Origin: Candidatus Hermodarchaeota archaeon
GTDB taxonomy: Archaea; Asgardarchaeota; Thorarchaeia; Thorarchaeales; Thorarchaeaceae
Reading direction: 5' to 3'
Assembly (NCBI GenBank): GCA_048885865.1
Contig: JBHLLF010000015.1
Coordinates: forward strand, 1-64,000
DNA: 64,000 nt
The notes under the pieces were generated by a model. It saw only the letters and a program-made list of their open reading frames with translations. It did not search any database and had not been told where the DNA came from. Below, piece by piece: positions 4,812-27,975 of the stretch (positions are counted from its first letter, which is position 1; each line of letters opens with the position of its first letter). Made by a program: the position numbers and the translations under genes.

Positions 4812-4815
4812 CCTC

Positions 4816-9190: not shown

Positions 9191-10450
9191 ATGACTGACT
9201 ATAAGGTCAAGGATATTGGTCTTGCCGAAGAAGGCAGGATGTTGATTGAGTACGCTGAGAAACACATGCCTGTATTGATGCATCTCAGGAAGAAATACTC
9301 TGAGAGTAAGCCCCTGAAGGGGATGAGAATTGCTGGATGTCTCCATGTGACCAAGGAGACCGCTGTACTGGTTGAAACTCTTCGGGCAGCAGGGGCCGAA
9401 GTCGCATGGTCTGGATGCAATCCATTGTCCACCAACGACAAGGTGGCTGCTGGACTCGCCGCGAACGATGTGCCAGTCTATGCTTGGCATAATCTGAATA
9501 ACGAGGAATACTACTGGTGTATCGAGCAGACACTCAAGACTGAGCCTACCCTCACACTCGATGATGGGGCAGACCTCATATTCACTCTTCACAACAAGCA
9601 TCAAGAACTGATACCGAACCTCTACGGAGGATCAGAGGAAACGACCACCGGTGTTATTCGCGTCCGTGCGATGGCTGATGATGGAGCTTTGAAGTATCCG
9701 ATCATGGCTGTCAACGATGCAGACACCAAGCACTTGTTCGACAATGTGTACGGAACAGGACAGAGCGTCTTTGATGGCGTCATGAGAGCTTCTGCCATAC
9801 TGATTGCTGGGAAGACTGTGGTCATTGGTGGCTATGGGTATTGCGGCCGTGGAATGGCTGAACGTGCACGTGGACTTGGTGCAAATGTGATTGTTACTGA
9901 AGTTGATCCTATTCGTGCGCTACAGGCCAGGATGGATGGCTTCAGGGTCATGCCAATGGATGATGCAGCCCCTGAAGGCGATTTGTTTCTGACCGCTACA
10001 GGAATGAAGGATATCATCACTGGAGCTCATTTTAAGGTCATGAAAGATGGTGCGATGTTTGGCAATGCAGGTCATTACAATGTCGAAATCAATGAGCCCG
10101 ACTTGATTGCACTCAGCAAGGGACCAAAGAAACGGGTCCGTCATGCTCTTGATGAGTATGAGCTGAAGGATGGACGCAGGCTTTACCTGCTTGGTGAAGG
10201 TCGCTTGGTCAATCTTGCAGCTGCTGAAGGCCACCCCTCGGAAGTCATGGACCTGAGCTTCGCTAGTCAGCTCAATGCGATGATTTGGATGACAAAGAAT
10301 GGCAAGGACCTCAAGCCTGCGGTATATGAATTCCCGAAGGAGCTTGATAATGAAACCGCATTTGCCAAGCTTGAAACCATGGACATCAAGATAGACAAAT
10401 GGACACCCGAGCAAGAAGCCTATGCGAAAGCTTATGCTGAGGGGACCTAG
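9191..10450 (+). CDS. ahcY: Adenosylhomocysteinase
   Basis: GCLHVTKETA, CNPLST, EETTTG, KHLFDNVYGTGQS, GRLVNLAAAEGHP. Confidence 0.98.
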   Translation: MTDYKVKDIGLAEEGRMLIEYAEKHMPVLMHLRKKYSESKPLKGMRIAGCLHVTKETAVLVETLRAAGAEVAWSGCNPLSTNDKVAAGLAANDVPVYAWHNLNNEEYYWCIEQTLKTEPTLTLDDGADLIFTLHNKHQELIPNLYGGSEETTTGVIRVRAMADDGALKYPIMAVNDADTKHLFDNVYGTGQSVFDGVMRASAILIAGKTVVIGGYGYCGRGMAERARGLGANVIVTEVDPIRALQARMDGFRVMPMDDAAPEGDLFLTATGMKDIITGAHFKVMKDGAMFGNAGHYNVEINEPDLIALSKGPKKRVRHALDEYELKDGRRLYLLGEGRLVNLAAAEGHPSEVMDLSFASQLNAMIWMTKNGKDLKPAVYEFPKELDNETAFAKLETMDIKIDKWTPEQEAYAKAYAEGT

Positions 10451-10554
10451 TCGAAGGATGGGAGAGTCTTTCCAATAGTAGCGCTCCTTTTCCTAGTTCG
10501 ATAGATGCAAGCATTCTTACCTGCTGGAAACCATATTATATCGGAGAGATTGCT

Positions 10555-10950
10555 ATGAAGATTGTTGGATACTTTGATGGAACAGACTCTATTCTATTGA
10601 CCAATCTAGTGGCACGCGGTTATGGAACTATACCAATTGCTAATGACTGGGATGGTGCAGGAAAGCTTGCATCTCTCATCGAACCAGGAGATGTCGATCT
10701 TCTCGTGGGATACTTGCACAAGGTTATAGCTCCCGAGAGCGAATCAGGAGGAGATATGACGATGCATCGAGGGCTAACTCCATACGATTTGCTTTATCGC
10801 GCGAAAGCGTTTGACATCCCAGCCCTCATTATAGCTCCGAAGGAAGCTCACAAGGCTGCAAAGAAAGCACTTGGCAAAGCTGCCAAATTCGTGACGCTTG
10901 TTACTCCAGAGAATGTTGAAGAGAAGATTTTGGGAATTCTAGCATCTTAG
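10555..10950 (+). CDS. Conserved hypothetical alpha/beta protein
   Basis: GGAG RBS, plausible composition, hairpin downstream; function not recognised. Confidence 0.7.
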   Translation: MKIVGYFDGTDSILLTNLVARGYGTIPIANDWDGAGKLASLIEPGDVDLLVGYLHKVIAPESESGGDMTMHRGLTPYDLLYRAKAFDIPALIIAPKEAHKAAKKALGKAAKFVTLVTPENVEEKILGILAS

Positions 10951-11100
10951 AACGGAATGCAATTCAGGTCGGGAATCCTGCCCGACTCCCATTTTCTAAC
11001 TAGATTCACCTTCTATCTCTGCCCAAAAGCAATCCATCCAAAGCGTAATGCCATAACTTATGAAGCAGAAAGATTTCTTGAGATTCCGGTGATTTCTTCT

Positions 11101-11523
11101 TTGGAGATTGAAGGATTCCTATTTCCGGATGAGCTCTACTACCACCCGGACCATACTTGGGCAAAGATCGAGGGAAGCAAAGTTCGTACAGGAATCACTC
11201 CATATGCAGTGCATCTTGCCGGGGATATTAAGGCGATTACACCCCGCCCCGTAGGAAAAGAGGTCATGATTGGAGGGCCGATTGCTACACTCGAGAGCAA
11301 CAAGTGGGTCGGGCCCATGAGGAATCCCGTTTCTGGAGTTGTTGTTGGATCAAACTCGGCTCTGGAAGATGACTTTAGTGCTCTTGTGAGTGACCCCTAT
11401 GGAGAGGGGTGGATTTGTGTCCTTGAGCCGATTAGTCTTGAAGAAGACTTGAAACAGCTCTTTCATGGGGAAGAAGCGGTGACTGAGTGGATTATAATGG
11501 AGATTCGAGGAAAGGGTGGTTGA
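11101..11523 (+). CDS. Glycine cleavage H-like lipoyl-carrier protein
   Basis: LYYHPDHTWA, TGIT, LESNKWVGP (lipoyl Lys), DPYGEGWI; TTG start after GGTGA. Confidence 0.88.
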   Translation: MEIEGFLFPDELYYHPDHTWAKIEGSKVRTGITPYAVHLAGDIKAITPRPVGKEVMIGGPIATLESNKWVGPMRNPVSGVVVGSNSALEDDFSALVSDPYGEGWICVLEPISLEEDLKQLFHGEEAVTEWIIMEIRGKGG

Positions 11524-13195: not shown

Positions 13196-13519
13196 ATGGA
13201 ACTCAGTCCATGTGGTCATGCCTGTGACATCTGTCCTAGCTACAAGGGAGAAAGTGGTCGTCAGTGTTCAGGATGTCTAGACTCAAAGGGTGAGCCATGG
13301 TGGGGCAATTGCAGGCTCTTCGAATGCGCTAGTACGAAAGGAGTACGTCATTGCGGTATGTGCGATGAGTTTCCCTGTGACCTTCAGATCGGACATTTCG
13401 ATCCATCCAATCCTAAAGGTCAACGGAATGCAGTCTTGCGAACCGGTGTGCTTGCTTTTTGGGCGAAGCATGGTGAAGACAAGACAGTCGAATTAGTCAA
13501 GAGAGTTCATGGAATCTGA
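13196..13519 (+). CDS. DUF3795 Cys-rich protein
   Basis: PCGHACDIC, CSGC, C..FEC...KGVRHCGMCDEFPC. Confidence 0.85.
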   Translation: MELSPCGHACDICPSYKGESGRQCSGCLDSKGEPWWGNCRLFECASTKGVRHCGMCDEFPCDLQIGHFDPSNPKGQRNAVLRTGVLAFWAKHGEDKTVELVKRVHGI

Positions 13520-13610
13520 ATCTGTCCTTAGCTTCTTGCGATTGCATATCTGTTTTGATTCAAGAACAGATAATAATAGGCAAATACTAGCCTGACGAGG
13601 AGATTGTGAT

Positions 13611-15029
13611 ATGAGAAGCTCGGAGAAGCTCAGTAGGAAAAACCTCTGGGGTTATGCGTTTGGTGCAATTCCAACTGGACTCTTGGGATTCGTTTTTAGC
13701 TTCAAGTACATCGAGTTCTTCTTCGATGACCTTGCACTTCTCCCTTCATTTTTCATTCTTGGGCAGATTATCTACATGACTATCAACTCACTGAACGATC
13801 CGCTATCTGGTCAGCTATCAGATAGAACTGACAGAGAACGATGGGGAAGCAGGCGTCTAATCTACATCAAATATGGCGGTCCAATCTGGGCACTCACCTT
13901 CCTGCTTGTGTGGTTTCCGTGGAGTCTAACAAATCAGATAGTCATCTTCTTGCACTATGTTGTGACCATATGTCTCTTTGACACAATGTACACCCTAGTC
14001 ATTCTTCTTTGGCTTGCATTACTTCCCGAGATGACCATGGACATTGATGAGCGTAATAAAGCTCAGTTCTTCGCAACGATTTTGGGCACCGTAGTGACTC
14101 TACCCGTCTTTATAATAATTGCAAGTATTCCGCCTAATTCAGATCAGTTCAGGGCAATAATGTTCATTCTAGCCGCAATTTCTACGGTTTTCATTTTACT
14201 TACAGCCTCTATGTGTGAGGAGCGTCCTGAGTTCCAGAGTGACAAGGTCTTCACTCTAAAGGAATCAATCATTGCCACATTTCGATCAAGGGCATTTCTT
14301 GTCTATGCCGGATTCTATCTCTGTCAGAATATGCTGGGAAGCTTGGGCTTGAGTTACTTCTTCGTATATCTGCTTCTCTTGGAGAGAATTACGCCGGGAC
14401 TAGACGTCATTCTCCTATTCTTTGTCGTCTACTTCATAGTCGGATATTTGGGAAACATCATAGCAATCCGGCTCCAGTCGAGATGGGGAATGAGAAGAAT
14501 CATGCTTAGGTTCGGGATTGTTAGAGTCATAGGTTCGTTGGTCCTTTTCCTCATCATACTTGTACCATCTCTCGAATGGACAATATGGTTCGGACTCATT
14601 GTGATTACTCTTGCATCTGGTTACGGCATTTTCCACATTCCAATGCAGTACTTAGCAATAGATGAGGATGAGGTGCTTCACGGCTCACGGAGAGAGGGTA
14701 TGTTCATCGGAGTAATGGCACTGTTGACTCGTCCAGGGACTAGTCTTGGCCCCATAGTAGCCACGTTTGTGCTTACAGCTTTTGGCTACATTCAAAGCGG
14801 TTTGCCTGCGGCTCAGCCTGCATCCGCTCTACTTGGAATCAAGATTCTCTGGCTACTAGTACCAGCAATAGTGGCGGGATTAAGTCTAGTCTTCATCTAC
14901 TTCTATCCGTTGCATGATGAGGCGTTAGCAGAGATGCAGGAAAAACTGCAGAGGCTTCATGAGGAAAAGAGAGCCGCTCTTCTTGAAGGGGATCAAAAAA
15001 CCTCAGACTTTGCATCAACAGCTAATTAG
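13611..15029 (+). CDS. MFS glycoside-pentoside-hexuronide (MelB/GPH-like) transporter
   Basis: NDPLSGQLSDRT..RWGSRR, ALLPEMT.D..ER, GSRREGMF; about 12 TM. Confidence 0.9.
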   Translation: MRSSEKLSRKNLWGYAFGAIPTGLLGFVFSFKYIEFFFDDLALLPSFFILGQIIYMTINSLNDPLSGQLSDRTDRERWGSRRLIYIKYGGPIWALTFLLVWFPWSLTNQIVIFLHYVVTICLFDTMYTLVILLWLALLPEMTMDIDERNKAQFFATILGTVVTLPVFIIIASIPPNSDQFRAIMFILAAISTVFILLTASMCEERPEFQSDKVFTLKESIIATFRSRAFLVYAGFYLCQNMLGSLGLSYFFVYLLLLERITPGLDVILLFFVVYFIVGYLGNIIAIRLQSRWGMRRIMLRFGIVRVIGSLVLFLIILVPSLEWTIWFGLIVITLASGYGIFHIPMQYLAIDEDEVLHGSRREGMFIGVMALLTRPGTSLGPIVATFVLTAFGYIQSGLPAAQPASALLGIKILWLLVPAIVAGLSLVFIYFYPLHDEALAEMQEKLQRLHEEKRAALLEGDQKTSDFASTAN

Positions 15030-16188
15030 GGATGTCTATAGGATAAGAGCTGTATTTCTCCCGAACCTCCATAACTGCTTCCCATCTGTCAATAGTCACA
15101 GATGGAACAATGCTGTGCCCACTGCTGAATAGATATCCTCCTCCAGGAGCTATTTCTCGAATCAACTTCATACTATATTCCTTAATCTCAGAGATGTTTC
15201 CAGTAGCCAACATGACAGGACTGATGTTCCCTACGAAAGTAAGCCTGTCACCATATTTCTCAGCGAGATTGAAAATATCATAATCAGGATTTGCAGTTGT
15301 GGGTTCAATTGGATGAATTGCGTCTACGCCACAATTCACGATATCATCAAATATCATTGACAAATCCCCATCTGAATGTAGCAGAATCTTGCAATCCCTT
15401 TTATGCGCAGCATCACAGATTCGATTGAGCCAAGGAAAGACATATGTTTTGAAGTTCCGTGGACTCATGAATAACCCATTTTTAAAGCCATAGTCATCCC
15501 AGATTAGGACAACCTCAGCACCGTTCTCTGCAAGGATACTGACCAGTTCAAGTGCTAGATTCCCTCTGTCATCAAAGATCTTCTTTGCCTGTTTGGGCTT
15601 TGCCAAGATGCGTGAGAATACCTCAATTCCAAAAGGTTCCCAAGCAGGTTCGAACATTCCACCAATCGCAGGGACAGACAGGATTTCATTGTTCATCTGT
15701 TCTTGAACCTGTTTGCCAGCCCGGAAAGCAGCAAGTCGCCGTTTCTCATGTGGGCTTGGTTGTTTCCATTTCTCATAATCTTCGAAGCTCTTTAGATATC
15801 CTCCACGATAACCAAGAATCAGAGTTCCATCCTCATAATAGTCCACATTCATGATTCTACCAAACTCGTCTATGTAACCCCCCTCGATGCCTTTGCGATA
15901 CGTATGTGTTACATAACTGAGACCAATATCAATCTTGAGACGTCGGAGAAGCTCATAGCCGTCGACCAAACCTTGGGCAAGCCATTTTTGATTTGAGAAT
16001 GCCCAGTTTGCAATGCGGTCCTTGCCTGGAAGCCGTTTTATGGATTCATATCCGTCCTTAATTCCAGCACCAGGGTCAAGACCGTAGTGCTGCATGATTG
16101 TGTTGTTTGTGAAGGCACTCTCAAACGCTGGAACTCTGTCAGGTTCCTCATGGTTAAGTGCCATCAAAACTCGTGTTGGTGCGTCCAA
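15022..16188 (-). CDS. UroD/MtaA-fold putative methyltransferase (HSDG variant)
   Basis: ALNHEEPDRVP, WDDYG, LLHSDGD, AIHPIE, APGGGYLFSSGHS. Confidence 0.85.
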   Translation of the reverse strand: MDAPTRVLMALNHEEPDRVPAFESAFTNNTIMQHYGLDPGAGIKDGYESIKRLPGKDRIANWAFSNQKWLAQGLVDGYELLRRLKIDIGLSYVTHTYRKGIEGGYIDEFGRIMNVDYYEDGTLILGYRGGYLKSFEDYEKWKQPSPHEKRRLAAFRAGKQVQEQMNNEILSVPAIGGMFEPAWEPFGIEVFSRILAKPKQAKKIFDDRGNLALELVSILAENGAEVVLIWDDYGFKNGLFMSPRNFKTYVFPWLNRICDAAHKRDCKILLHSDGDLSMIFDDIVNCGVDAIHPIEPTTANPDYDIFNLAEKYGDRLTFVGNISPVMLATGNISEIKEYSMKLIREIAPGGGYLFSSGHSIVPSVTIDRWEAVMEVREKYSSYPIDIPN

Positions 16189-16193
16189 TCGTG

Positions 16194-16823
16194 CTATCCC
16201 TCCAACAGTGCTCTGATGCGCCGGACACCTTCTATTGCATCTGCCCCGAAGTCATCAGCTCCCATCTTCTTCGCAAGATCCATACTAAGAGGGGCACCAC
16301 CAACGATAATCTTCACATTGTTTCTAAGACCAGCATCGCTTAGGGCGTTTCCAATTACACGAATCTCATTGACTGTCATTGTTAGTAGACAGCTCAGAGC
16401 CACAATACGAGCTCCACTCTCCTTAACAGCCTCTACAACTTTCTCAGCTGGACAGTCCATCCCAAGATCGATGACATCATATCCCGCAGACATCAGCATA
16501 GTAATGAGGATGTTCTTCCCGATGTCGTGATTGTCGCCTTTGACAGTTGCAGCGATTACCTTCTCACGCTCAACCATCTCATCAGCTTTGAGGTGGGGTT
16601 CAAGAACAGCTACAGCCTCTTTCATCGTTTCGCCTGCTAACACAAGCTCGGCGAGAAAATACTCGTTCTTCTCATAGAGCGTACCAACTTCGTTCATACC
16701 CTCAGAGAGTGCTTGAAGAACATCCTGGGGGTTGGAACCAGCGTCAATATTCTTCCTAACAATCTCAGCGATGTCATCTACCTCTAGTTGGACTACCGCA
16801 TCTGTCACTTCTTTTAATGTCAT
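16194..16823 (-). CDS. Corrinoid (cobalamin-binding) methyl-acceptor protein, MtaC/MtbC-like
   Basis: B12 cap helices, GDNHDIGKN (DxHxxG), DLG.D, IIVGGAP. Confidence 0.95.
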   Translation of the reverse strand: MTLKEVTDAVVQLEVDDIAEIVRKNIDAGSNPQDVLQALSEGMNEVGTLYEKNEYFLAELVLAGETMKEAVAVLEPHLKADEMVEREKVIAATVKGDNHDIGKNILITMLMSAGYDVIDLGMDCPAEKVVEAVKESGARIVALSCLLTMTVNEIRVIGNALSDAGLRNNVKIIVGGAPLSMDLAKKMGADDFGADAIEGVRRIRALLEG

Positions 16824-16969
16824 AGTGATTCCAGCCTTCGGGGATTTTATCGAAAACTACCACCTACAGCTCCACATTAGATTGCATGGGTGTATTTGTT
16901 TGTTTCAGAATAGAATCGGAAAGAGATTAATCTCATATTGAGGGAATAGGATGAAGGTTGGAGTTAGGT

Positions 16970-19702
16970 ATGACAAAGAAACCCTATGGCTCAGGTTACT
17001 TCGGCGAGTGGATTATGGATGAGTTTGGTCTTCCAGCCTACCGATATACTTGTGACCAGACCACAGATCCAAAGGCTGTTTCACCGATGACAGAGGAATG
17101 GCGAGCCAACACAGACCATCTCCATCAGGTTGGAAATGATAGACTTGTGGCAGTTGTTTCCAACTATGGTCAGGTCCAAGTAAGGCAGGATGAGGGTAGT
17201 CCCAAGTTCCTAAATGATTATGACCCCTCAAGATTCCAATATGGTGGTGGTATAGGGTATTTGACTGATGGAGAAACATTCCTCAGTACATTCTACACTG
17301 GACAAGCAGACTCGTTTGACCGCAATTTTGGAATGGGCTATTTTCGAAAGACTGTGAAGGACAATTCACTTGTTGCGGACCAGATTATCTTTGCACCATT
17401 TGGCGATGAACCACTGGTGGTTTCACAGGTCACGATAAAGAACGAACGTGACAAAGCTGCTGATCTCAGATGGATTGAATACTGGGGTTGTCAGCAATAT
17501 CAGTTCTCATTCAAGTCGTTCATGATGTCGATAGCTCTGAAAAAGCCAACTTCAGACATTCGTAGGGAGTTCAGCCGGCGATTTGATCATAAGACGGAGG
17601 TCATAGAGAAGAATAGAGGATTGCTGAACTCAAAGCGTTTCAAAGGAAACACAATGAGTGACAAAGTCACCTGGAAGGCCTTGAATAGGTACTTAGCCAC
17701 AAAGGGAAAACATCTGACTGGTGGTGCTGTCAAGGCTCCAATTAAGGAAACAGTTCTTGAGGATGAAACTCCACCAGCAACATTCTTGGTTTCGTTGGAT
17801 GCTCCTGCTGATGTCGTAGGTACGGATGTTGTGAGTTTCTTTGGTAAGGGTGGTGTTATTGCACCTGATGGGTTGCAGAGCACATTGTCCATGAGTACTG
17901 CCAAAAGGACTGAAACGGGCTTCCTCTTGGAGAGAAAACTGAGTCTTGCACCTGGAGAAGAACAGACTCTCTATTTCGTCTACGGCTATCTGCCTGAAGG
18001 ATTTACACTCGACTCACTTGTTGCCAAGTTTGAGAAAGATCCATCTAATTTATTGGCAAAATCCTGTGAGCAGTGGAAGGCAAACAGGATTCAACTAGTA
18101 ACTGATGATGAATGGGTGGATAGGGAACTAAGTTGGCACAATTACTACCTAAGAGGCAATCTTACTTTTGACAGCTTCTTCAATGAACATATTCTCTCTC
18201 AGGGTCACATGTATCAGTACATAATTGGAATTCAAGCAGCCGCTCGAGACCCTCTCCAGCATGCGTTGCCTTTTGTCTTCTCTCAGCCTGAAATTGTGAA
18301 GAATATCATAAGATACACACTCAAGACAGTGACCCCAGAGGGAAACATCCCGTATGGTATTGTTGGACATGGAATGTATATGCCATCTCCATGGCGCCCC
18401 AGTGATCAGCAACTTTGGCTCCTCTGGTTGACTAGTGAATATGTTCTAGGAAATAGGGATGTTGAGTTCCTTGACGAAAGCATCACCATGTATCCCATTT
18501 ACGGGAAGAAAACCAGGCAAGCCAAGGTTCGTGACGTGCTCGCCCTATGTTTCAGGTACTTTATCGATACAAATGCAACAGGAAAACATGGACTGTCAAG
18601 GCTCTCTTATGGCGACTGGAATGACATGGTTGTACATGGGTATGTCCCACAAGAGAAACGGGATGAAGTCACTGAGGTGGGTGAAAGTATGTTGAATGCG
18701 AGCATGGCCACCTATGTGCTGAATCTATACTCACAGCTACTCACATACATAGGAGAACCTGATTTTGCAAACGAGTCACTCGATTTTGCTAGGAAACAAC
18801 AAGATGCAGTGAATCAGCAATGGCATGGCAAATGGTTTAAACGTGCATGGCTTGGCGACGCTCTTGGATGGGTTGGTACTGATGTCATGTGGCTTGAACC
18901 ACAGCCGTGGTCAATCATAGGCAGTGCTGCGACTAAAGAACAAGCTGATATTCTTCTGAGGTCCTTGAGTGACCTTGCTAGGTCCTCCTCCAAACATGGA
19001 GCAGTGATTCTCTCCAAGCCCATAGAACTGATGGCTGGCAATCCAGGTATCGGCACAAATGCTGGCGTCTGGCCTTCAATCAATGGTACATTGATTTGGG
19101 CGCTTGCGCTTCTAGATGGGGGTTTAGCTTGGGATGAGTGGACGAGAAACTCTCTGGCCAAACATGCAGAGGAATACCCTGAGGTATGGTATGGAATCTG
19201 GAGCGGCCCAGATACCTATAATTCCGAGTTCGCAGATCGGCCGGGGCAAACAATTGTCGTAGAAGCAAGAGGAGGAGTAAGAGATGCCATTGAGGAGGGG
19301 GAGGAAGAAGAGGAGGGATTCATGGGAGTGGGATGGACAGACTTCCCTGTAATGAATATGCATCCGCATGCATGGCCCCTGTATACTATTGGGAAGCTCA
19401 TGGGAATCGAGTTCAACAGCAAAGGAGTAGATTTGGCTCCAACATTGCCTAAGGACAAATACAAGTTCTCAACACCCCTCATAGAGATAGAGAAGTCAGA
19501 TGAGGGGTACTCAGGAAAGTACTCGCCTAAATCACCAGGAACATGGAAAATGTCCTTAAAACTAGATGAGCGGGAATTGGAGATGATGAAAGTTCTTCTT
19601 GTGAACAAGAAAGAGGTCGATATTGCTCGAGAGGGGAACAGAATAGTGTGGGAAGGCCAAAGCACAGAGGACGAACCACTGATATGGAATCTCAGGTTTT
19701 AG
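16970..19702 (+). CDS. GH94-like glycoside phosphorylase/hydrolase
   Basis: ARDPLQH, catalytic-type GDWND, GESMLNA, W.GKWFKRAW, WLEPQPW, GVWPSING; alternative TTG start at 16958. Confidence 0.78.
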   Translation: MTKKPYGSGYFGEWIMDEFGLPAYRYTCDQTTDPKAVSPMTEEWRANTDHLHQVGNDRLVAVVSNYGQVQVRQDEGSPKFLNDYDPSRFQYGGGIGYLTDGETFLSTFYTGQADSFDRNFGMGYFRKTVKDNSLVADQIIFAPFGDEPLVVSQVTIKNERDKAADLRWIEYWGCQQYQFSFKSFMMSIALKKPTSDIRREFSRRFDHKTEVIEKNRGLLNSKRFKGNTMSDKVTWKALNRYLATKGKHLTGGAVKAPIKETVLEDETPPATFLVSLDAPADVVGTDVVSFFGKGGVIAPDGLQSTLSMSTAKRTETGFLLERKLSLAPGEEQTLYFVYGYLPEGFTLDSLVAKFEKDPSNLLAKSCEQWKANRIQLVTDDEWVDRELSWHNYYLRGNLTFDSFFNEHILSQGHMYQYIIGIQAAARDPLQHALPFVFSQPEIVKNIIRYTLKTVTPEGNIPYGIVGHGMYMPSPWRPSDQQLWLLWLTSEYVLGNRDVEFLDESITMYPIYGKKTRQAKVRDVLALCFRYFIDTNATGKHGLSRLSYGDWNDMVVHGYVPQEKRDEVTEVGESMLNASMATYVLNLYSQLLTYIGEPDFANESLDFARKQQDAVNQQWHGKWFKRAWLGDALGWVGTDVMWLEPQPWSIIGSAATKEQADILLRSLSDLARSSSKHGAVILSKPIELMAGNPGIGTNAGVWPSINGTLIWALALLDGGLAWDEWTRNSLAKHAEEYPEVWYGIWSGPDTYNSEFADRPGQTIVVEARGGVRDAIEEGEEEEEGFMGVGWTDFPVMNMHPHAWPLYTIGKLMGIEFNSKGVDLAPTLPKDKYKFSTPLIEIEKSDEGYSGKYSPKSPGTWKMSLKLDERELEMMKVLLVNKKEVDIAREGNRIVWEGQSTEDEPLIWNLRF

Positions 19703-19720
19703 ATTAAGAGATGCCTAGCA

Positions 19721-20761
19721 ATGAATTCCCGCAATCTGACTCTTGAGGCCATCGAAGGTAAAACAGAGAGAGTTCCATTCAATCCATTCATCATGCATCT
19801 TGCTGCGTCGATTTATGGCATAGACTATAGCGGAGTATATTGTCAGGACGCACGAGTGCTTGCTGATGCCCAAATTAAATGCGCCAAAGCATTTGGAATT
19901 GACCACATGAACGTTTCAACTGATGCATATAGAGAGGCTAATGCATGGGGCGTAGAGATGGATTTCTCGAGTCACACTCCGGTGGCGAAGACACATCTTA
20001 GGATTGACGACTTTGACCAGGTTGAGGAACCAGACCTTAATGCTGCCAAGCGAATACAGGATAGGGTTGAGGCAGTCGAGCTGTTAAGAGAAGCTAGCAG
20101 CGACCAGTGTATCATTGGCTGGATAGAGGCTCCATTTGCGGAGATTTGCTGCTTGTTTGGATTGATGAATGTGCTAAAGCTAGCTCGCAGAGATGATTGG
20201 AACGAGCTGGTCCAAGGACTCTTGGACCGAGTATTTTCAATTCAGCTAGAGTTTGCCATGATGCAGGTCGAGGCTGGAGCAGACATCATTGGAGCAGGTG
20301 ACTCTGCCGTTTCTCAGATAGGCCCCAAGCGCTATGAGGAGGCCTGTCTTGAATCAACTCAGACTCTCTTCAAAGAAATCAACAAACATGCGCCTGTACT
20401 CTACCATGTCTGTGGGGACTGTTCAGTGGTTGACACTGAAGGCAGGGATATGTTGGAATTCGTCGCGAGTTCTGGAGCCTCAGTCTTGGACATAGACTAC
20501 CAAGTGGACTTGGCCAGCGCAAAGGCGAAGATCGGTTCGAGAGTATGTCTTCGAGGCAATATCAATACCTCCCTCCTCGGAAGCGAAACGTACAATGAAA
20601 TTCAGGTCACAAAGGAGATATCAGAAGCAATTCAAGCAGGTAAGCCAGGCGGCAGGTACATGTTCTCAGCAGGCTGCGAATGGCCTTGGGAACCCCTGGA
20701 ATTGGCTACTCGGAATCTGCAGATTGCAAGAAACGTGGTCGAAGAGCTTGGAGGATATTGA
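19721..20761 (+). CDS. MtaA/CmuA-type corrinoid methyltransferase (UroD fold)
   Basis: EAPFAE, QVEAGADIIGAGD, canonical Zn motif HVCG...GCE. Confidence 0.9.
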   Translation: MNSRNLTLEAIEGKTERVPFNPFIMHLAASIYGIDYSGVYCQDARVLADAQIKCAKAFGIDHMNVSTDAYREANAWGVEMDFSSHTPVAKTHLRIDDFDQVEEPDLNAAKRIQDRVEAVELLREASSDQCIIGWIEAPFAEICCLFGLMNVLKLARRDDWNELVQGLLDRVFSIQLEFAMMQVEAGADIIGAGDSAVSQIGPKRYEEACLESTQTLFKEINKHAPVLYHVCGDCSVVDTEGRDMLEFVASSGASVLDIDYQVDLASAKAKIGSRVCLRGNINTSLLGSETYNEIQVTKEISEAIQAGKPGGRYMFSAGCEWPWEPLELATRNLQIARNVVEELGGY

Positions 20762-20762
20762 T

Positions 20763-21935
20763 ATGAACTCCCGAGAACGAGTGATGACTGCTCTGAACCA
20801 CAGAGAACCAGATATGGTGCCGCTAGATTTTGGGGGCAATCAGTCAAGTATTCACATTGTGGCTTACAAGCGACTACTCGAATATCTCGACATCGAGGAT
20901 GATAACATTCGCTACAGTGATTTCCTCCAGCAGATTGCGAACCCTTGTGAAAAAATACTCGAGCTATTTGAAATAGATATTCGATGGCTCCGAGCACCTT
21001 CTTCATTTTTGCCTGATGGTTATGTTCCTGAAGTCGAGGGGAAGTTTCAAGGAGTCTTGGATCAGTTTGGCGTATTCTGGGGCAACAGTGCGGAGAAGGA
21101 CCTTGAAGACATTCTCTATTACGATCCAGTCATCCATCCCTTGGCTGAAATGAAATCAGTACGGGAGATTAGGGAGTATGACTGGCCCGATGGAACTGAC
21201 AGGACTCCTCTGAAGGGTTTGAGAAAACAGGCAAAGAAACTCAGAGAGAATACTGACTATGCCATTGCAACGCCACCAGTTGGCTGCATTTATGAATACA
21301 CGACATTCCTCTTTGGTTTTACAAAAGCTATGAAACATCTGCAGAAGAGTCCAGAGCTGATAATTGCCACCATGGAGGAATTAGAGAAATATTGGACAGA
21401 TTATGCTGCCGCACTACTTGATGAGGTGAAATTTGGAAACGAGCATTACGTCGATGTTGTTTCCAACAATGGTGACCTTGCAGAACAGGCAGGCCCAATT
21501 ATGAGCCCAAAACGCATCTATGAGCCTCTAATCAAACCAATAGAACAACGGTTCTCAGAGAAGTTACATGCCCTTGCTGACGTAAGAATCAACTACCATT
21601 CTTGCGGATCAGTTTCTCAATTCATTCCTCACTTCGCAGAAATTGGCTATGACGCACTGAATCCGGTTCAAGTCGGTGCTTTTGACATGGAGCCATGCAG
21701 CCTGAAGAAACGATTTGGGGATATGATAACATTCTGGGGTGGGCTGTGCGACACGCAGAAGACCCTTCCATTTGGGACAGTTGATGAGATATGTCAAGAG
21801 GTCGAGCGTAACATAGCATGTTTGAAACCCAGCGGCGGGTATATTGCTTCAAATATTCACAATATAACTGCTGAAGTTCCACCAGAAAACGTAGTAGCGA
21901 TGTTCGATGCCGCCAAAAGAAGTAGATACTATTAG
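20763..21935 (+). CDS. UroD/MtaA-fold putative methyltransferase
   Basis: MNSRERVMTALNHREPD, YHSCGS, DALNPVQ, FWGG, GGYIASNIHNI; real start ATG 20763. Confidence 0.88.
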   Translation: MNSRERVMTALNHREPDMVPLDFGGNQSSIHIVAYKRLLEYLDIEDDNIRYSDFLQQIANPCEKILELFEIDIRWLRAPSSFLPDGYVPEVEGKFQGVLDQFGVFWGNSAEKDLEDILYYDPVIHPLAEMKSVREIREYDWPDGTDRTPLKGLRKQAKKLRENTDYAIATPPVGCIYEYTTFLFGFTKAMKHLQKSPELIIATMEELEKYWTDYAAALLDEVKFGNEHYVDVVSNNGDLAEQAGPIMSPKRIYEPLIKPIEQRFSEKLHALADVRINYHSCGSVSQFIPHFAEIGYDALNPVQVGAFDMEPCSLKKRFGDMITFWGGLCDTQKTLPFGTVDEICQEVERNIACLKPSGGYIASNIHNITAEVPPENVVAMFDAAKRSRYY

Positions 21936-22032
21936 GCTAGGTTGGTTCCACGGAAAATAAAACGTAATCCAAAATAATGAAATGGTTCTTCATACAAAGA
22001 TTATCATAGTATAACCCAAGGAGTGGAGATGA

Positions 22033-23448
22033 TTGTCTGCATTTGAGGACAGTGCGAAAAAGCTGTCCGAGTTTGGTCTTACACCCTATGAGGCTAAGGT
22101 CTACCTAGCCGCTGCTAAGCTTGGACCTACCTCTGCAAGTAAAATCTCAAAGGTAGCAAAGATTCGTCGCGAGGAAGTCTACCGAACATTGCCTAAACTG
22201 GAGAAAGCTGGACTCATTAATCGGGTTCTAGGCAGACCTGTCAAAATCAGGGCAATGCCAATCGAGAATGCCCTCAGCTTCCTAATTAGTCGGAAAGAAG
22301 AGCAAGCGAAACAGGAGATTTCAAACCTCTATTCAATGAGAGAGAGTATCTTGGATAGCCTGCAGGCCGAACATGAAGAGGCGGATTTGGGTGATGAGCC
22401 CCACCATTTCACATTGATATCCGAAAAGGATGCTGTCGGTGCAAGGACTTCGGCATTAATTGGCAACGCTAGAGCTTCAATTGACGTAGTGGACTCAAGT
22501 GCAGATGTTATTCGATTCATACTCAATTATGCAGATGTTCTGGAAAAAACAATCAATAGAGATGTGAAAGTTAGGATATTAACAGTCTGTCCCGATAATG
22601 AGGAAACTATCCCAGAAGCTCTTCAGAAGCATGTCCCAAACAACTCATTCGATTTGAGGTACGTCGAAACACTCCCAAGTCGCTATATTATGGTCGACCG
22701 AGATCAGGCATTAATCACAACCACTCCCGACGGAACATTATCCGACATGAAATGCCTGTGGACGGATGATCCCACTCTTGTTGGACTTATCGAGAGAGAC
22801 TTCGGAGAGCAGTATGCCAAGTCCACATCCTGGAAAGACTTCAAGCTATCACCATCTGAAAAGATGACCAGGATTGTGAAACACCTAAGGCCAAGAGATC
22901 ATGTGATTCTAATGTATGATTCACTAGAAGCCAAGCGAAACACGCTCTTCAATTACCTCAAATATGGACTCGACAATGGAGAGGCTGTGAAATATGTCTG
23001 TTCAGAAGAGTCTCCTGAAGAGATTCGACTGGCTATGCAGAAATTCGGAATCCCCGTGAGCGAGTATGAAAAAACGGGAGCGCTGGATATAATGAATTAC
23101 ACTGACATCTATATCAGAGAAGGAAAGTTCAGTGTTTTAGACGTCATGGATGCATGGGATAATTACTACACAAATGCACTAGCTGAAGGATTCAAGGGTC
23201 TGAGAGTCACTGGAGAGATGTCATGCTTCATGGAACACTCTCTAGTGGGAGAATTGATTGAGTATGAGAAGGCGCTACATACAATATTGGACATACCCTT
23301 GACCGCAATTTGTGCCTATAACTCCGAAACGCTGGCCAACATTGAGAATCCATTGGACGTATATTCAGAGCTTGTCAAGGCTCATGGAAAAGTCCTTTTT
23401 GCTGACAAAGACAGCACTGTTGGGAAGGTAGAGATGCGTAAAGCCTGA
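22033..23448 (+). CDS. TrmB-family regulator fused to a C-terminal MEDS domain
   Basis: FGLTPYEAKVY...IRREEVYRTLPKLEKAGL (TrmB HTH); DHVILMYDS, GLDNGE, GLRVTGEM, AICAY (MEDS). Confidence 0.88.
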   Translation: MSAFEDSAKKLSEFGLTPYEAKVYLAAAKLGPTSASKISKVAKIRREEVYRTLPKLEKAGLINRVLGRPVKIRAMPIENALSFLISRKEEQAKQEISNLYSMRESILDSLQAEHEEADLGDEPHHFTLISEKDAVGARTSALIGNARASIDVVDSSADVIRFILNYADVLEKTINRDVKVRILTVCPDNEETIPEALQKHVPNNSFDLRYVETLPSRYIMVDRDQALITTTPDGTLSDMKCLWTDDPTLVGLIERDFGEQYAKSTSWKDFKLSPSEKMTRIVKHLRPRDHVILMYDSLEAKRNTLFNYLKYGLDNGEAVKYVCSEESPEEIRLAMQKFGIPVSEYEKTGALDIMNYTDIYIREGKFSVLDVMDAWDNYYTNALAEGFKGLRVTGEMSCFMEHSLVGELIEYEKALHTILDIPLTAICAYNSETLANIENPLDVYSELVKAHGKVLFADKDSTVGKVEMRKA

Positions 23449-24583: not shown

Positions 24584-25939
24584 TCAGGCACCCACTCTCT
24601 TCACATATTTGTCGATGGCAAATTTCCGTTCTAGCCCCTTGGAACTCATGTAGCGAACTTTGCCGTAGATAGGTCTCTCTCCCCATGCTCTGTCGTGTTT
24701 TCCAAAGCACCATGCAACACCTGCGTATCCATTTGGATCCCGGCCATCTAGTTCATACTTGTCGTTCAGTAGAAGTGCAGTGCTATACGCCAATTCCGGA
24801 GATGAACTCCACTCTAGTATCTTCTTTCCCCAATACATGCGCATATAGCCATGCATCTTTCCGGTTTTCATCATCTCGATTTGGGCGGCATTCCAATATG
24901 GATCATGAGTTTCAGCGGACTCAAATTCCGCAAGTGAATAGACGTGTTCGCGGGGGTCAGTGGAATGCTCTTCTAGTGTGGTCATAGCCCAATTGGGCAG
25001 ACATCTAATTGAGTCATAGTCCTTGTTGTAATAGACAAAATTCATACTTAGCTCACGACGAACCACCAACTCCTCAAGAAAGGGTTCGGCTCCAATACTT
25101 CCTGTTTCCAAGACCTGTAAAGCAATCTCGAGAGGTGATATTTGGCCAAAGTGGAGATACGGACTCATGATAGAAAGATAGTTCTCGGAAGGATTATTGC
25201 GCAAGTCGCCAAATTGGTCTAGTTTCTCGGAGATGAATTTGCTTAGCCTTTTCTTCGCCTCTTGTGTGCCACCTTGAATCCAGTCCACCCCTTTTACAGA
25301 TCTGTCGATTTCAAACTCATCAAGTACTCTTCTTGGATTCTTCAACTGAATTGAGGGAATCTCTTCGTTTAGCGAAAAAGCAGGGTCAGATTTCACAAGA
25401 GGCTTTAGGAATCTTTCCAAGTGCCGACTTATTTTTGGCCGAAATGTCCCAGCAGAGTATTCCTCCTTAGGAGAAGCGGTTTCAACAGGAACAACCACAT
25501 TGGATTCTACTTGAATGACAGGACATCTAACTGACTCCGCTACCTTGCTACGCCACTCTCTTTGAAGCCGTTGGTAATCACGATCAACAATCATCAGGGC
25601 ACAGTCTTCAGCCAGACTAATCGCGTACACGCTTGGATCTTCTTGACGCACAATTAGCGGCAAATTCCTCTCATTAAGTTCTGCTTCTACTTGAATGAGA
25701 CCTTCTAGTAAGAATTGATAGCTCCTTTCAGTGCCTCCCGGATATTTGCCTGTTAGCCCGAAACATACTACAAGTGGTAATTCATACCTATTTGCCAGAC
25801 CAATTGCATACTCTAGAGCATGATTGCTATCAGATCTCTGAGATGCCTGCATCCAATACAGTACATATTTTCCCTTTTGTATTGAATTGGAGTTCAGCTG
25901 AGTAATTCGTTCCTTGTCAATCATGTTGAATGGGTTCAT
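24584..25939 (-). CDS. phr: Class II CPD DNA photolyase
   Basis: YVLYWMQASQR..SNHAL, SPYLHFGQIS, GKMHGYMRMYWGKKILEW, DGRDPNGYAG; start ATG 25939 or 25924. Confidence 0.96.
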   Translation of the reverse strand: MNPFNMIDKERITQLNSNSIQKGKYVLYWMQASQRSDSNHALEYAIGLANRYELPLVVCFGLTGKYPGGTERSYQFLLEGLIQVEAELNERNLPLIVRQEDPSVYAISLAEDCALMIVDRDYQRLQREWRSKVAESVRCPVIQVESNVVVPVETASPKEEYSAGTFRPKISRHLERFLKPLVKSDPAFSLNEEIPSIQLKNPRRVLDEFEIDRSVKGVDWIQGGTQEAKKRLSKFISEKLDQFGDLRNNPSENYLSIMSPYLHFGQISPLEIALQVLETGSIGAEPFLEELVVRRELSMNFVYYNKDYDSIRCLPNWAMTTLEEHSTDPREHVYSLAEFESAETHDPYWNAAQIEMMKTGKMHGYMRMYWGKKILEWSSSPELAYSTALLLNDKYELDGRDPNGYAGVAWCFGKHDRAWGERPIYGKVRYMSSKGLERKFAIDKYVKRVGA

Positions 25940-25958
25940 GAGTAAAGACTTATTAGCA

Positions 25959-25978
25959 TTATTAACAATTGTTAATAA
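25959..25978. promoter_or_regulatory. Perfect 20-bp palindrome in the divergent promoter region of the photolyase
   Basis: TTATTAACAATTGTTAATAA is its own reverse complement. Confidence 0.55.
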
Positions 25979-26021
25979 CGTTCTATTGTCAAACATTTGG
26001 AGCACTAGGATTGTGTGGGAT

Positions 26022-26483
26022 ATGCAATTTCCAAGCGTAAGTGGAAATGATCTTCTTAGAAACAAGGTTTCATTGCCTGATGACTTGAGTTCGGGACTAA
26101 ATGTCCTGATAGTGGCTTTCCAACAGTGGCATCAGGGACTAGTGAACTCTTGGGTACCTCTTCTTGACCACATGGTGGAAAAGTATCAAGATCTTGATTA
26201 CTATGAATTGCCAACTATCAGGAAGATGAATTGGTTAAGTCGTAGCATAATAGACAACGGAATGCGAGCAGGAATTCCATCAAGAGACACACGAAGGAGA
26301 ACCATAACGCTCTACATTGACAAGGACCCGTTTAGGAAAAAGCTAAACATCCCAGATGAGAGCGATATCCATCTATTCCTGGTTTCAGATGGCGGCGAAG
26401 TCTTATGGACTAGGTCGGGTGCCATCTCAGAGGAAAAAGCAGATTCACTGACTTCTGCAATAGAGAAAGCTAGAGCGGATTAG
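26022..26483 (+). CDS. ATP10-like thioredoxin-fold protein (no CxxC)
   Basis: FPSVSG.DL....VSLP.DL, VAFQQWHQ..VNSW, IDNGMRAGIP, LFLV...GEVLW. Confidence 0.7.
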   Translation: MQFPSVSGNDLLRNKVSLPDDLSSGLNVLIVAFQQWHQGLVNSWVPLLDHMVEKYQDLDYYELPTIRKMNWLSRSIIDNGMRAGIPSRDTRRRTITLYIDKDPFRKKLNIPDESDIHLFLVSDGGEVLWTRSGAISEEKADSLTSAIEKARAD

Positions 26484-26499
26484 CGGACTCAGGACAAAA

Positions 26500-27975
26500 T
26501 CACGTGACAGGAGAAGATTCAGCTACCTGGACAAGCCTTTCAATGAACCTTCTAATCACATATTTCCTAAATGGTAGTAGCCCATACCATGCAACCATTC
26601 CCGCCAGTCCATAGGGGCGGTAGTGGATTTCTGCATCGAGGGAACAACCTTTGGGAATTCTGTCCCTCATTGTAAGTGTGAGTGTCATGAGAGCTGGCAT
26701 CTTTAATCTTGACATGAGTGAGAGTCGGCTAGTAGGAGAGAATTCGACAATCTTCCAGCAGTCTACTGAGGAACCTGCTTTTAAACGAGAGAAAGGAGCT
26801 ATGTTTTCTGCCATGCCGTTTCCTCGAAGAAGAACATCAATGTATCCGCGAAATGGCCAAATCCAACTTCCGTAGTTCCAGCCCTTTGTACCAATAATGG
26901 AATTTAGTGCATTCCAGACATTATCACTTGAAGCAAGTGATTCGAATCTCTGATTTATGGCAAAAGAGGTGCCTCCTGCCCACTGAGGATCCCCCTTCTG
27001 AACTTGCTCAGGAATTGAAACCAGTTTATAATGATCTTCTCTTTCGGAGGAAGTATGATGTCTTCTGTTGTCTATTGCTAGGCGAATAGCCTCACGGACA
27101 GTCAGTAGTTTCTGAGGAACTAATAACTGAACATCATCATTTTGAACGACTGCTTCATTCCGCAAACCTTCAATGAGTGGCCTTGTGAGTGGAGTTGGAA
27201 GAGGAGTCACTAAGGAAAGCCAATAGGAACTCAGACCCGGGGTTAGTATCGGTATGGGGACAATGAATCGTCGCACCAGACTTGCTTCTTCTGCATAGAT
27301 ACGCATCAGATCTTGATAGGAGAAGACATCGGGTCCACCAATATCCAAGACTCGATTGGCAGTCTCTTCGTTCGCAAGACAATCAATGAGATATCCGACA
27401 ACATTGCTAACAGCAATTGGTTGACTCTTTGTGCGAACCCATCTAGGAGTCACCATAGCTGGCAATCTATCAACAAGATACCGCATTATTTCGAATGATG
27501 CACTTCCTGCTCCAATTATCATAGCTGCACGAAGAGTAGTTGCTGGAACTGAACAGTCGTGCAAAATGCGACTGACTTCCATTCGGGATGCAAGATGCTT
27601 GCTGAGTCCGCTCTCAACCTCACCCAGTCCACCCAGGTAGATTATTCGTTTTAATTCAGCCTGCTCCGCAGCTTTGACCATGTTTTCTGCTGCTGTTCTA
27701 TCAAGGTTTACAAAATCCCCCTTACCGTACATAGAATGCACCAGATAGAATGCTGCAAAACATCCCTGTGTTGCACTGATCAATGACTCAACATCAAACA
27801 CATCTGCTTTAACTGGAGTAAGATTCGGATGGGATGACCAAGATTTCATTTTGATTTTGGTGGAATCTCTGTATCCTGCATTGACCCGAAATCCCTTGCG
27901 TAGTAATGCACTCACTAGCCGGGTCCCAATGTAGCCAGTTGATCCGACTACTAGTACTCTTCTCAAATCAGTCAT
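26500..27975 (-). CDS. Atypical SDR (YbjT-like) with DUF2867 C-terminus
   Basis: GSTGYIG, FYLVHSM, SKHLASR, GSASFE, C-terminal P.GLAG...WYGLLP. Confidence 0.88.
   Translation of the reverse strand: MTDLRRVLVVGSTGYIGTRLVSALLRKGFRVNAGYRDSTKIKMKSWSSHPNLTPVKADVFDVESLISATQGCFAAFYLVHSMYGKGDFVNLDRTAAENMVKAAEQAELKRIIYLGGLGEVESGLSKHLASRMEVSRILHDCSVPATTLRAAMIIGAGSASFEIMRYLVDRLPAMVTPRWVRTKSQPIAVSNVVGYLIDCLANEETANRVLDIGGPDVFSYQDLMRIYAEEASLVRRFIVPIPILTPGLSSYWLSLVTPLPTPLTRPLIEGLRNEAVVQNDDVQLLVPQKLLTVREAIRLAIDNRRHHTSSEREDHYKLVSIPEQVQKGDPQWAGGTSFAINQRFESLASSDNVWNALNSIIGTKGWNYGSWIWPFRGYIDVLLRGNGMAENIAPFSRLKAGSSVDCWKIVEFSPTSRLSLMSRLKMPALMTLTLTMRDRIPKGCSLDAEIHYRPYGLAGMVAWYGLLPFRKYVIRRFIERLVQVAESSPVT

Follow-up and report, generated by a model that had tools for sequence, protein, structure and literature searches.

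The window analysed here comprises 64,000 nucleotides of Candidatus Hermodarchaeota archaeon (assembly GCA_048885865.1, contig JBHLLF010000015.1, positions 1 to 64,000) and contains a cluster in which genes of the glycoside import and cleavage type stand beside genes of the corrinoid methyl-transfer type. An earlier note, made from the sequence, had read this cluster as a cobalamin-dependent system for the use of O-methylated glycosides, a reading that is partly supported by the present analysis. Pfam and NCBIfam searches of the window proteins confirmed a seven-gene cluster within 13196-23448 (Table 1), and the genes that had been named are all present: a GPH-type importer, three UroD-fold proteins (UroD-1, UroD-2, and UroD-3), a corrinoid protein with a DxHxxG motif (Corr), a GH94-like protein with a GDWND motif, and a regulator with a helix-turn-helix (HTH) and a MEDS domain. 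The corrinoid and GH94-like genes indeed diverge across the region 16824-16969. The third UroD gene had been given a start at 20595; homologues place it at the ATG at 20763, one base past the UroD-2 stop, yielding a protein of 390 amino acids (aa) as in all homologues.

Table 1. Genes and regions of the cluster, with positions in the window, strand, and supporting matches.
Feature	Position	Strand	Evidence
DUF3795 small Cys-rich protein, accessory gene	13196..13519	+	Pfam DUF3795, E 2.8e-10
GPH/MFS_2 glycoside:cation symporter-type importer	13611..15029	+	Pfam MFS_2, E 2.7e-48, residues 14-435
UroD-1, UroD-superfamily methyltransferase-like, 388 aa	15022..16188	-	Pfam URO-D, E 1.6e-29
Corrinoid (B12) carrier protein (Corr), MtaC/MtbC type	16194..16823	-	B12-binding_2 1.2e-18 and B12-binding 1.7e-25
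Divergent promoter region (predicted) between corrinoid and GH94-like genes	16824..16969	.	Sequence and alignment
GH94-like glycoside-cleaving enzyme (predicted), 911 aa	16970..19702	+	Glyco_hydro_94 4e-19, supersandwich domain 1e-9
UroD-2, MtaA-sized, 346 aa	19721..20761	+	Pfam URO-D, E 3.8e-47
UroD-3, UroD-superfamily paralogue, 390 aa	20763..21935	+	Pfam URO-D, E 4e-15
HTH (TrmB-type) and MEDS-domain regulator	22033..23448	+	MEDS 6e-31, TrmB HTH 4e-17

The link between the sugar and corrinoid genes is real, as seen in three independent tests: gene neighbourhoods, the family tree, and the genome profile. The neighbourhood search that had been proposed as a check gave a positive answer, with GH94-like, UroD, corrinoid, and GPH genes co-localising and co-occurring in genomes from the Asgard lineages and from a few anaerobic bacteria. 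In the Thor, Hermod, Hel, Hod, Atabey, and Njord lineages, as well as one Anaerolineales bacterium, homologues of the GH94-like protein (83% to 57% identity) lie in the same or a rearranged set. All flanking open reading frames of 80 species-representative GH94-like loci (44 Asgard, 36 bacterial) were clustered without bias. The commonest neighbour was a UroD-fold gene, present in 40 loci (34 of the 44 Asgard and six of the 36 bacterial ones) at a median gap of 23 bp, followed by MFS_2 (18/80) and corrinoid genes (15/80); the MFS_2 gene is kept beside the cluster in 16 of the 44 Asgard loci. In loci of the Thor, Atabey, and Hel types, the corrinoid and GH94-like genes stand directly next to each other and diverge. 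GH94-like and UroD genes remain adjacent under at least eight gene orders, and the arrangement, found again in many genomes with the genes variously ordered, lies far beyond chance. On the GH94-like tree, the UroD link occurs in both main clades: throughout the Asgard clade, in basal bacterial members of the family (Thermodesulfobacteriota, Bacteroidia, Actinomycetes), and separately in Anaerolineales.

The genome profile covered the GH94-like gene and the UroD-1, UroD-2, and UroD-3 orthologues in 201 sampled Asgard genomes. The GH94-like gene and UroD-2 occurred together in 29 genomes, the former without the latter in five and the reverse in two, and 165 had neither. The GH94-like gene was thus present in 29 of 31 genomes with UroD-2, and it was found in 32 of 37 with UroD-3. 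All four genes were found in 22 genomes, and at least three in 34 of the 42 holding any of them. The distribution is patchy within families and holds in Loki-type genomes in which the genes lie on different contigs, so the co-occurrence is more than inherited synteny.

The GH94-like protein displays the supersandwich and (alpha/alpha)6 catalytic architecture according to Pfam, its structural model, and Foldseek, and lacks a signal peptide. The model is confident (pLDDT 85.6, pTM 0.90), and its best Foldseek matches are GH94 phosphorylases acting on cellobiose, cellobionic acid, and chitobiose (TM 0.68-0.76). Common to this protein and the GH94 phosphorylases are the domain architecture, the fold, the RD...Q and EPQ motifs, and the catalytic DWND of cellobiose phosphorylase, with which GDWND aligns, its Asp and Trp being invariant; D556, which does not vary among 29 family members, corresponds to D490 of cellobiose phosphorylase. 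The differences are an identity of 15-18% and the phosphate site. The phosphate-binding residues of the Cellvibrio cellobiose phosphorylase are Arg351 and His666. The His666 position appears as an invariant Ser707 in the GH94-like family, single-sequence and profile alignments agreeing, and no counterpart of Arg351 was present in the sequence alignment 16-18 residues before R430. Phosphorolysis is therefore doubtful, and the protein is not filed here as a GH94 phosphorylase; the GH94-type assignment of the earlier note stands for the fold and the catalytic Asp, but the enzyme is perhaps no phosphorylase and may instead be an inverting hydrolase. The family, found in at least 449 species genomes, is a separate, uncharacterised one beside GH94.

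Members of this family are found among sugar genes everywhere. In Loki-type Asgard loci, an SGSH-like sulfatase gene lies directly upstream of the GH94-like gene, and MFS_2, GNAT, HAD hydrolase, and FAD oxidoreductase genes are also present; in Acidobacteriota, the gene is accompanied by those of a sugar transporter, a ROK kinase, a SIS protein, an SDR, an FAD oxidoreductase, and a PTE-family protein. The GH94-like protein is thus a carbohydrate enzyme independently of the methyl-transfer set, which is an addition to it, found in anaerobes. In ten of the Acidobacteriota loci, a gene for a 344-aa MetE-like protein (Meth_synt_2) lies about 5 kb from the GH94-like gene, and a metallo-beta-lactamase-fold protein recurs at a similar distance. 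Meth_synt_2 and URO-D belong to the same clan, and this set may be an aerobic or cobalamin-independent counterpart, or unrelated. In a single Helarchaeota locus, a GH67 alpha-glucuronidase gene (19950-20733) was observed about 8 kb from the cluster. GH67 enzymes free 4-O-methylglucuronic acid from xylan, so this neighbour hints at a candidate methyl sugar, which is only a lead.

A tree of 69 UroD-fold neighbours, with motifs read at the positions of the MtaA zinc ligands, resolves four clades, each with its own motif at the metal positions. The UroD-1 clade carries HSDGD...SSGHS, an invariant His/Asp/His set, and the UroD-2 clade HxCGD...GCEWP (HVCGD here), a His/Cys/Cys set in which H229, C231, and C319 are invariant. 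In the UroD-3 clade, H(S/C)CGS...N(I/V)HN (HSCGS...NIHN here) gives a fixed His/Cys/His set. The fourth clade, UroD-x, of Loki type and located beside the GH94-like gene, has HCCGK and no conserved third ligand. Within the UroD superfamily, His-Cys-Cys marks methyltransferases acting on sulfur or selenium, while O-methyltransferases exchange Cys for carboxylates (Kountz and Balskus, PMC10418091). The enzymes that load the corrinoid (MT1) in O-demethylation and dehalogenation, namely MtvB, OdmB, VdmB, and CdmB, are themselves UroD-superfamily proteins (PMC13222342), and the earlier suggestion that a UroD-fold protein could serve as MT1 agrees with this literature.

The UroD-1 model shows a UroD/MtaA fold, to which true UroD and MtaA score equally in a set of structures containing no O-demethylase or CdmB. 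A profile search of UroD-2 against solved structures likewise did not separate MT1 from the unloading methyltransferases (MT2), and UroD-2 reaches 77-89 bits against MtaA, MtbA, and MtsA NCBIfam equivalog cut-offs of 244-400. HemE enzymes are recognised by an N-terminal Arg-rich motif, which a sequence check found absent from UroD-2. Identity as true uroporphyrinogen decarboxylases was rejected, given three paralogues with zinc motifs, the linkage to a corrinoid gene, and the missing HemE-type N-terminal Arg motif.

The corrinoid protein consists of a B12-binding_2 cap and a Rossmann B12-binding domain and reaches 169 bits against TIGR02370. Its DNHDIG sequence, matching DxHxxG and including D96, H98, and G101, is invariant in 13 orthologues. 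The best control of the complex modelling scored 0.13, whereas the complex of UroD-2 with Corr scored 0.83; of 80 solved complexes, 58 reached that mark, as did two of 110 mismatched pairs. At least 85% of contacts are common to the runs, the partner pLDDT is at least 82, and the predicted interface sets the DxHxxG loop and cap helix of Corr against invariant residues at the barrel mouth of UroD-2. As a prediction, the model supports docking of UroD-2 on the B12 face of Corr. A corrinoid orthologue occurs in 56 of the 201 Asgard genomes, more broadly than the GH94-like/UroD set, and in 39 of the 42 genomes holding any GH94-like or UroD-1/-2/-3 gene; it is therefore needed by the set, not exclusive to it. 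In all five tested genomes without an adjacent copy, the orthologue was present elsewhere. The flanks of such dispersed copies (ABC/FtsX transporter, MBL, and aminotransferase genes) were considered as a functional clue and proved uninformative. Each of the two complete Atabeyarchaeia genomes has two copies of the Corr clade, one divergent from the GH94-like, UroD-2, and UroD-3 genes and the other beside UroD-1, about 0.5-0.8 Mb apart; the set is thus split there into two carrier-plus-methyltransferase units.

These data bear on a sceptical explanation in which the UroD-fold neighbours are not methyltransferases at all: they would be zinc TIM-barrel enzymes modifying sugars, or would be linked without sharing a pathway, with the corrinoid gene as a bystander. 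Many GH94-like/UroD loci do have no corrinoid gene within 8-10 kb, UroD-x keeps no conserved third ligand, the UroD/MetE clan includes enzymes with other activities such as decarboxylases, and MetE-like genes lie near the GH94-like gene in some Acidobacteriota. The near-constant presence of a corrinoid orthologue in gene-carrying genomes (39/42, and 5/5 where adjacency is lost), its divergent position beside the GH94-like gene in three types of loci, the predicted docking through the B12 face, and the lack of a HemE-type Arg-rich motif in UroD-2 all speak against it, and we regard this explanation as highly improbable.

The reading favoured here, tentatively and somewhat short of probable, is that the locus encodes a cytoplasmic, oxygen-independent pathway for methyl-bearing glycosides, with the methyl group preferably on the carbohydrate. 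Gene content, conserved linkage, co-occurrence, metal motifs, folds, and predicted docking are its foundations, and the catalytic steps would be as follows. The GPH-type symporter would import a methylated glycoside, which the GH94-like enzyme would cleave, perhaps by hydrolysis rather than phosphorolysis. Corr would carry the methyl group, in the form of CH3-Co(III), from one zinc-dependent methyltransferase of the UroD superfamily to another. UroD-1, with His/Asp/His ligands and a gene probably co-transcribed with that of Corr, would be the most likely O-demethylating MT1. The MtaA-like UroD-2 (His/Cys/Cys) might unload the methyl group onto a thiol, as an MT2, or act on a sulfur-linked group as an S-demethylase, and UroD-3 (His/Cys/His) might handle a second donor or acceptor. 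Reductive activation by RACo and transfer to a pterin by MtrH would be supplied from other loci, and the Msr-type HTH-MEDS regulator would control the divergent operons.

The favoured substrates are methyl ethers on carbohydrate, for example in methylated, often sulfated algal or plant glycans, because of the carbohydrate context (sulfatase, sugar kinases, GPH transporters, and two glycosidase families) and the intact zinc triads. Zinc in MtaB polarises methanol, and by analogy the UroD triads could polarise an ether oxygen. The wider proposal is that of an anaerobic counterpart to cytochrome P450 sugar demethylation, in which zinc-assisted, B12-dependent removal of carbohydrate methyl ethers works together with a new sister family of GH94 that is not phosphorolytic. 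Such a system would be common among Asgard archaea and would pass the methyl group to a thiol or pterin; this is possible, and we hold it with considerable doubt.

Several points weigh against this pathway. To our knowledge, attack by Co(I) on an alkyl (sugar) methyl ether is without precedent, and the known substrates of UroD-type MT1 enzymes are aryl methyl ethers, haloalkanes, and methylthiols. The catalytic steps are proposed from genes and models, and ligand motifs and protein length are the two sources of the suggested MT1 and MT2 roles. The corrinoid clade is not dedicated to the pathway, as its count among the Asgard genomes indicates. The profiled genomes are related to one another, so that Fisher p-values overstate the signal, and in most Loki-type genomes the UroD-1/-2/-3 and corrinoid genes are dispersed, UroD-1 lying in housekeeping surroundings. 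No UroD or corrinoid gene was found near the GH94-like gene in the Acidobacteriota loci, so the substrate of the enzyme need not be methylated. CdhC (acetyl-CoA synthase) and ComA were not found in this 87%-complete genome, an incompleteness that leaves their absence unproven. Neighbours of lone UroD-1 genes in Loki-type genomes (inositol monophosphatase, methylpurine glycosylase, cation efflux protein, and ribosomal S10) were also inspected and set aside as housekeeping synteny offering no functional clue.

The methyl group could instead reside on the aglycone, an unlikely but serious rival. The substrates would then be glycosides or glucuronides of methoxylated, lignin- or lignan-derived aromatics, the glycosidase freeing an aglycone from which a classical aryl O-demethylase, made up of a UroD-type MT1, a corrinoid protein, and an MT2, removes the methoxy methyl group. 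All characterised O-demethylating MT1 enzymes of the UroD superfamily (MtvB, OdmB, VdmB, and MtoB) use aryl methyl ethers (PMC13222342, PMC8630106), so this explanation requires no new chemistry. The gene surroundings of UroD-2 are also relevant here. UroD-2 orthologues are nearly confined to Asgard archaea (89 matches), and in the reciprocal test the GH94-like gene was adjacent in 22 of 80 UroD-2 loci. Among 52 Loki-type loci with a lone UroD-2, the neighbours were a DUF6206 kinase-fold protein (20, immediately downstream), a divergent GH2 glycosidase (18), and MFS_2 (15), with a glyoxalase-fold protein, a LigT-like phosphoesterase, and a HAD hydrolase as further conserved ones; none of the 52 had a corrinoid gene beside UroD-2. 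The GH2 and MFS_2 genes are a second glycosidase-plus-GPH context for UroD-2, which counts for less than the cross-lineage evidence since the Loki-type genomes are close kin.

That the same UroD set partners different glycosidases, GH94-like and GH2, would fit a common aglycone, and the combination of GH2 with a GPH transporter resembles the glucuronide (gus) pairing. The importer of the present cluster scores 108 bits against TIGR00792 gph (cut-off 231), and its second-best NCBIfam match, far under the cut-off, is a glucuronide transporter. The GH94-like family, however, is located among carbohydrate genes (sulfatase, GNAT, HAD, ROK, SIS, sugar transporter) instead of aromatic-degradation genes, no aromatic-catabolism genes occur in or near the cluster, and known GH94 substrates are disaccharides, not aryl glycosides. 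Moreover, all three UroD proteins keep full metal triads, whereas aromatic O-demethylases have reportedly often lost coordinating residues (PMC10418091).

The DUF6206 genes found beside lone UroD-2 also occur elsewhere. In the present window, the stretch 3831-6108 (-), some 7.5 kb upstream of the cluster, holds a gene of the DUF6206 kinase fold (E 3e-22) and, after it, one for a class-III aminotransferase. A Hodarchaeales locus has this pair directly upstream of its GH94-like gene, and an APH-type kinase accompanies the Anaerolineales cluster. DUF6206 and kinase-fold genes may belong to the recurrent partners of the pathway as well.

A methyl group bound to sulfur or selenium was considered as well, along the lines proposed for the mlp clusters. 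The substrates would be methylthio-sugars or other methylthio or thiol metabolites, and UroD-2 would act as an S-demethylase. The His/Cys/Cys triad of UroD-2 is typical of S/Se-methyltransferases (PMC10418091), and type 1 mlp clusters, compared here by their description, likewise combine three UroD-superfamily lineages with a corrinoid protein and lack a clustered folate methylase; for both, function has been deduced largely from genomic context. Loki-type UroD-2 genes lie in an operon with a DUF6206 kinase-fold protein and a HAD hydrolase, and an S-adenosylhomocysteine hydrolase gene is located near the present cluster. The operon would recall, as we see it, the methylthioribose kinase and HAD phosphatase steps, a lead only. 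In type 1 mlp clusters, however, the Mlps are almost all His-Cys-Cys and the Ram activase and sulfur/selenium genes lie in the cluster (PMC10418091), whereas here UroD-2 alone among the three paralogues carries that triad, the activase is encoded elsewhere, the partners are sugar genes, and no sulfur- or selenium-metabolism genes were found in the cluster. The strongest partner, a glycoside-cleaving enzyme, would also be left unexplained. This alternative is considered improbable.

The S-adenosylhomocysteine hydrolase gene shares the stretch 9191-11523 (+), upstream of the cluster, with a gene for an N-terminally extended GcvH-like protein; in the Thor genome CP070761 the hydrolase gene directly adjoins the MFS_2 gene. 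Proximity of GcvH-like genes to methyltransferase genes of Asgard archaea has been described (PMC11291895). Connecting these two genes with a thiol or methyl acceptor is pure speculation.

For the favoured carbohydrate pathway, some functions would be provided in trans. The earlier note had seen neither an MtaB/MttB/MtvB-type MT1 nor a corrinoid activase in the window; RACo/RamA activases and MttB/MtaB-type MT1 enzymes are indeed missing from it, although an MtvB-type MT1 is not missing in kind, being a UroD-fold protein (PMC13222342). The window's contig holds no RACo gene, and neither MtrH nor Pterin_bind genes occur in the window. Elsewhere, the genome encodes about seven corrinoid proteins, two proteins of the MttB family, and two RACo activases, on contigs C3 and C17. 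The RACo gene of C3 lies together with MtrH-like and corrinoid genes, two more MtrH genes are beside an MTHFR-like gene on C64, a Pterin_bind gene is on C40, and a Mch gene is present. With RACo and MtrH encoded in trans, an activase missing from the window is no problem, and a pterin route is therefore available. In the Mto system, the MT2 is likewise a pterin-type enzyme (PMC8630106). Delivery of the methyl group to C1 metabolism via MtrH, the MTHFR-like protein, and Mch is possible, judging from these genes. One MttB-family gene, next to a corrinoid gene on contig C2 (genome G000, 153345-154790), contains an in-frame TGA and an in-frame TAG within its match; these could reflect a pseudogene, a sequencing error, or recoding.

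The intergenic region between the divergent genes was aligned with its orthologues, eight regions in all, and two conserved A/T-rich boxes common to the eight loci were identified, at about 16890-16903 (GTAATATT-like) and at 16921-16931 (AAGAGATTAAT). They are probably TATA/BRE elements of both operons or operator sites for the MEDS regulator. The regulator had been described as TrmB-MEDS, and both domains were found. An HTH joined to MEDS is, as we understand it, the architecture of the Msr and DcmR methylotrophy regulators; by domain content the protein is of Msr/DcmR type, the TrmB label refers to the HTH alone, and the regulator is therefore no evidence of sugar sensing. The regulator gene stands beside the cluster only in the closest relatives (four loci), and the DUF3795 gene is similarly kept only among the closest relatives (seven loci). 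Directly downstream of the cluster, at 24584-27975 (-), are a photolyase-domain gene and an NmrA/DUF2867 SDR gene, in a genome that is otherwise anaerobe-like. A tRNA scan of the window found none.

Methylated sugars block ordinary carbohydrate catabolism, and the sole described demethylation route, that of cytochrome P450, needs oxygen. If the carbohydrate pathway is correct, corrinoid methyl transfer, which acts on aryl ethers, amines, thiols, and halides, would be widened to carbohydrate ethers, a substrate class that, as far as we know, has never been shown for corrinoid methyltransferases. It would also provide a function for a large uncharacterised GH94-like family present in at least 449 species, and would give Asgard archaea in anoxic sediments access to the methylated, often sulfated glycans of algae and plants, a specific and testable trait in sediment carbon cycling with possible production of methanethiol or C1 units from glycans. 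Even if the substrates are methoxy-aromatic glycosides, a glycosidase constantly paired with four methyl-transfer genes would be a new organisational variant. New in this work are the genome profile, the metal signatures specific to each orthologue, the co-occurrence of the genes in Loki-type genomes although they are dispersed there, the placement of UroD-2 beside GH2, the purely sugar-related surroundings in Acidobacteriota, the lack of a phosphate site in the GH94-like protein, and the docking model. In the literature, no paper linking GH94 with corrinoid systems was found; the mlp-cluster paper (PMC10418091) does not mention glycosidases, MFS transporters, or Asgard archaea, and the published account of the Atabeyarchaeia, whose two complete genomes carry the cluster, leaves it unmentioned. 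Anaerobic sugar O-demethylation was not found either, the only described sugar O-demethylase being the aerobic P450 (PMC6292453, PMC10033563).

Compared with the methylcobamide:coenzyme M methyltransferases MtaA, MtbA, and MtsA, UroD-2 is alike in size, fold, His-x-Cys...Cys motif, and predicted docking on a corrinoid protein, and differs in falling below the equivalog cut-offs and in co-occurring with glycoside enzymes; neither the ComA route of coenzyme M synthesis nor an MCR context was found here. With the three-component corrinoid O-demethylases MtvABC of Moorella, Odm and Vdm of Acetobacterium and Desulfitobacterium, and MtoABCD of Methermicoccus shengliensis, the present system has in common a UroD-superfamily enzyme of the MT1 type, an MtaC-like carrier with DxHxxG, dependence on a RACo/RamA-type activase, and anaerobic hosts. 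It differs from them in its three UroD paralogues with intact but dissimilar metal triads, in the location of the MtrH/MeTr-type MT2 and the activase in trans instead of in the cluster, and in its conserved partners, a glycoside importer and a GH94-like enzyme. Unlike that of these systems, the substrate here is probably not a free methoxy-aromatic. In marine porphyran degraders, sugars are O-demethylated by a cytochrome P450 that requires oxygen and gives off formaldehyde (PMC6292453, PMC10033563). The job proposed for the present locus is the same, namely removal of an O-methyl group that blocks catabolism, but the two systems are unrelated in sequence and mechanism, and the Asgard proteins would accomplish it by anaerobic methyl transfer.

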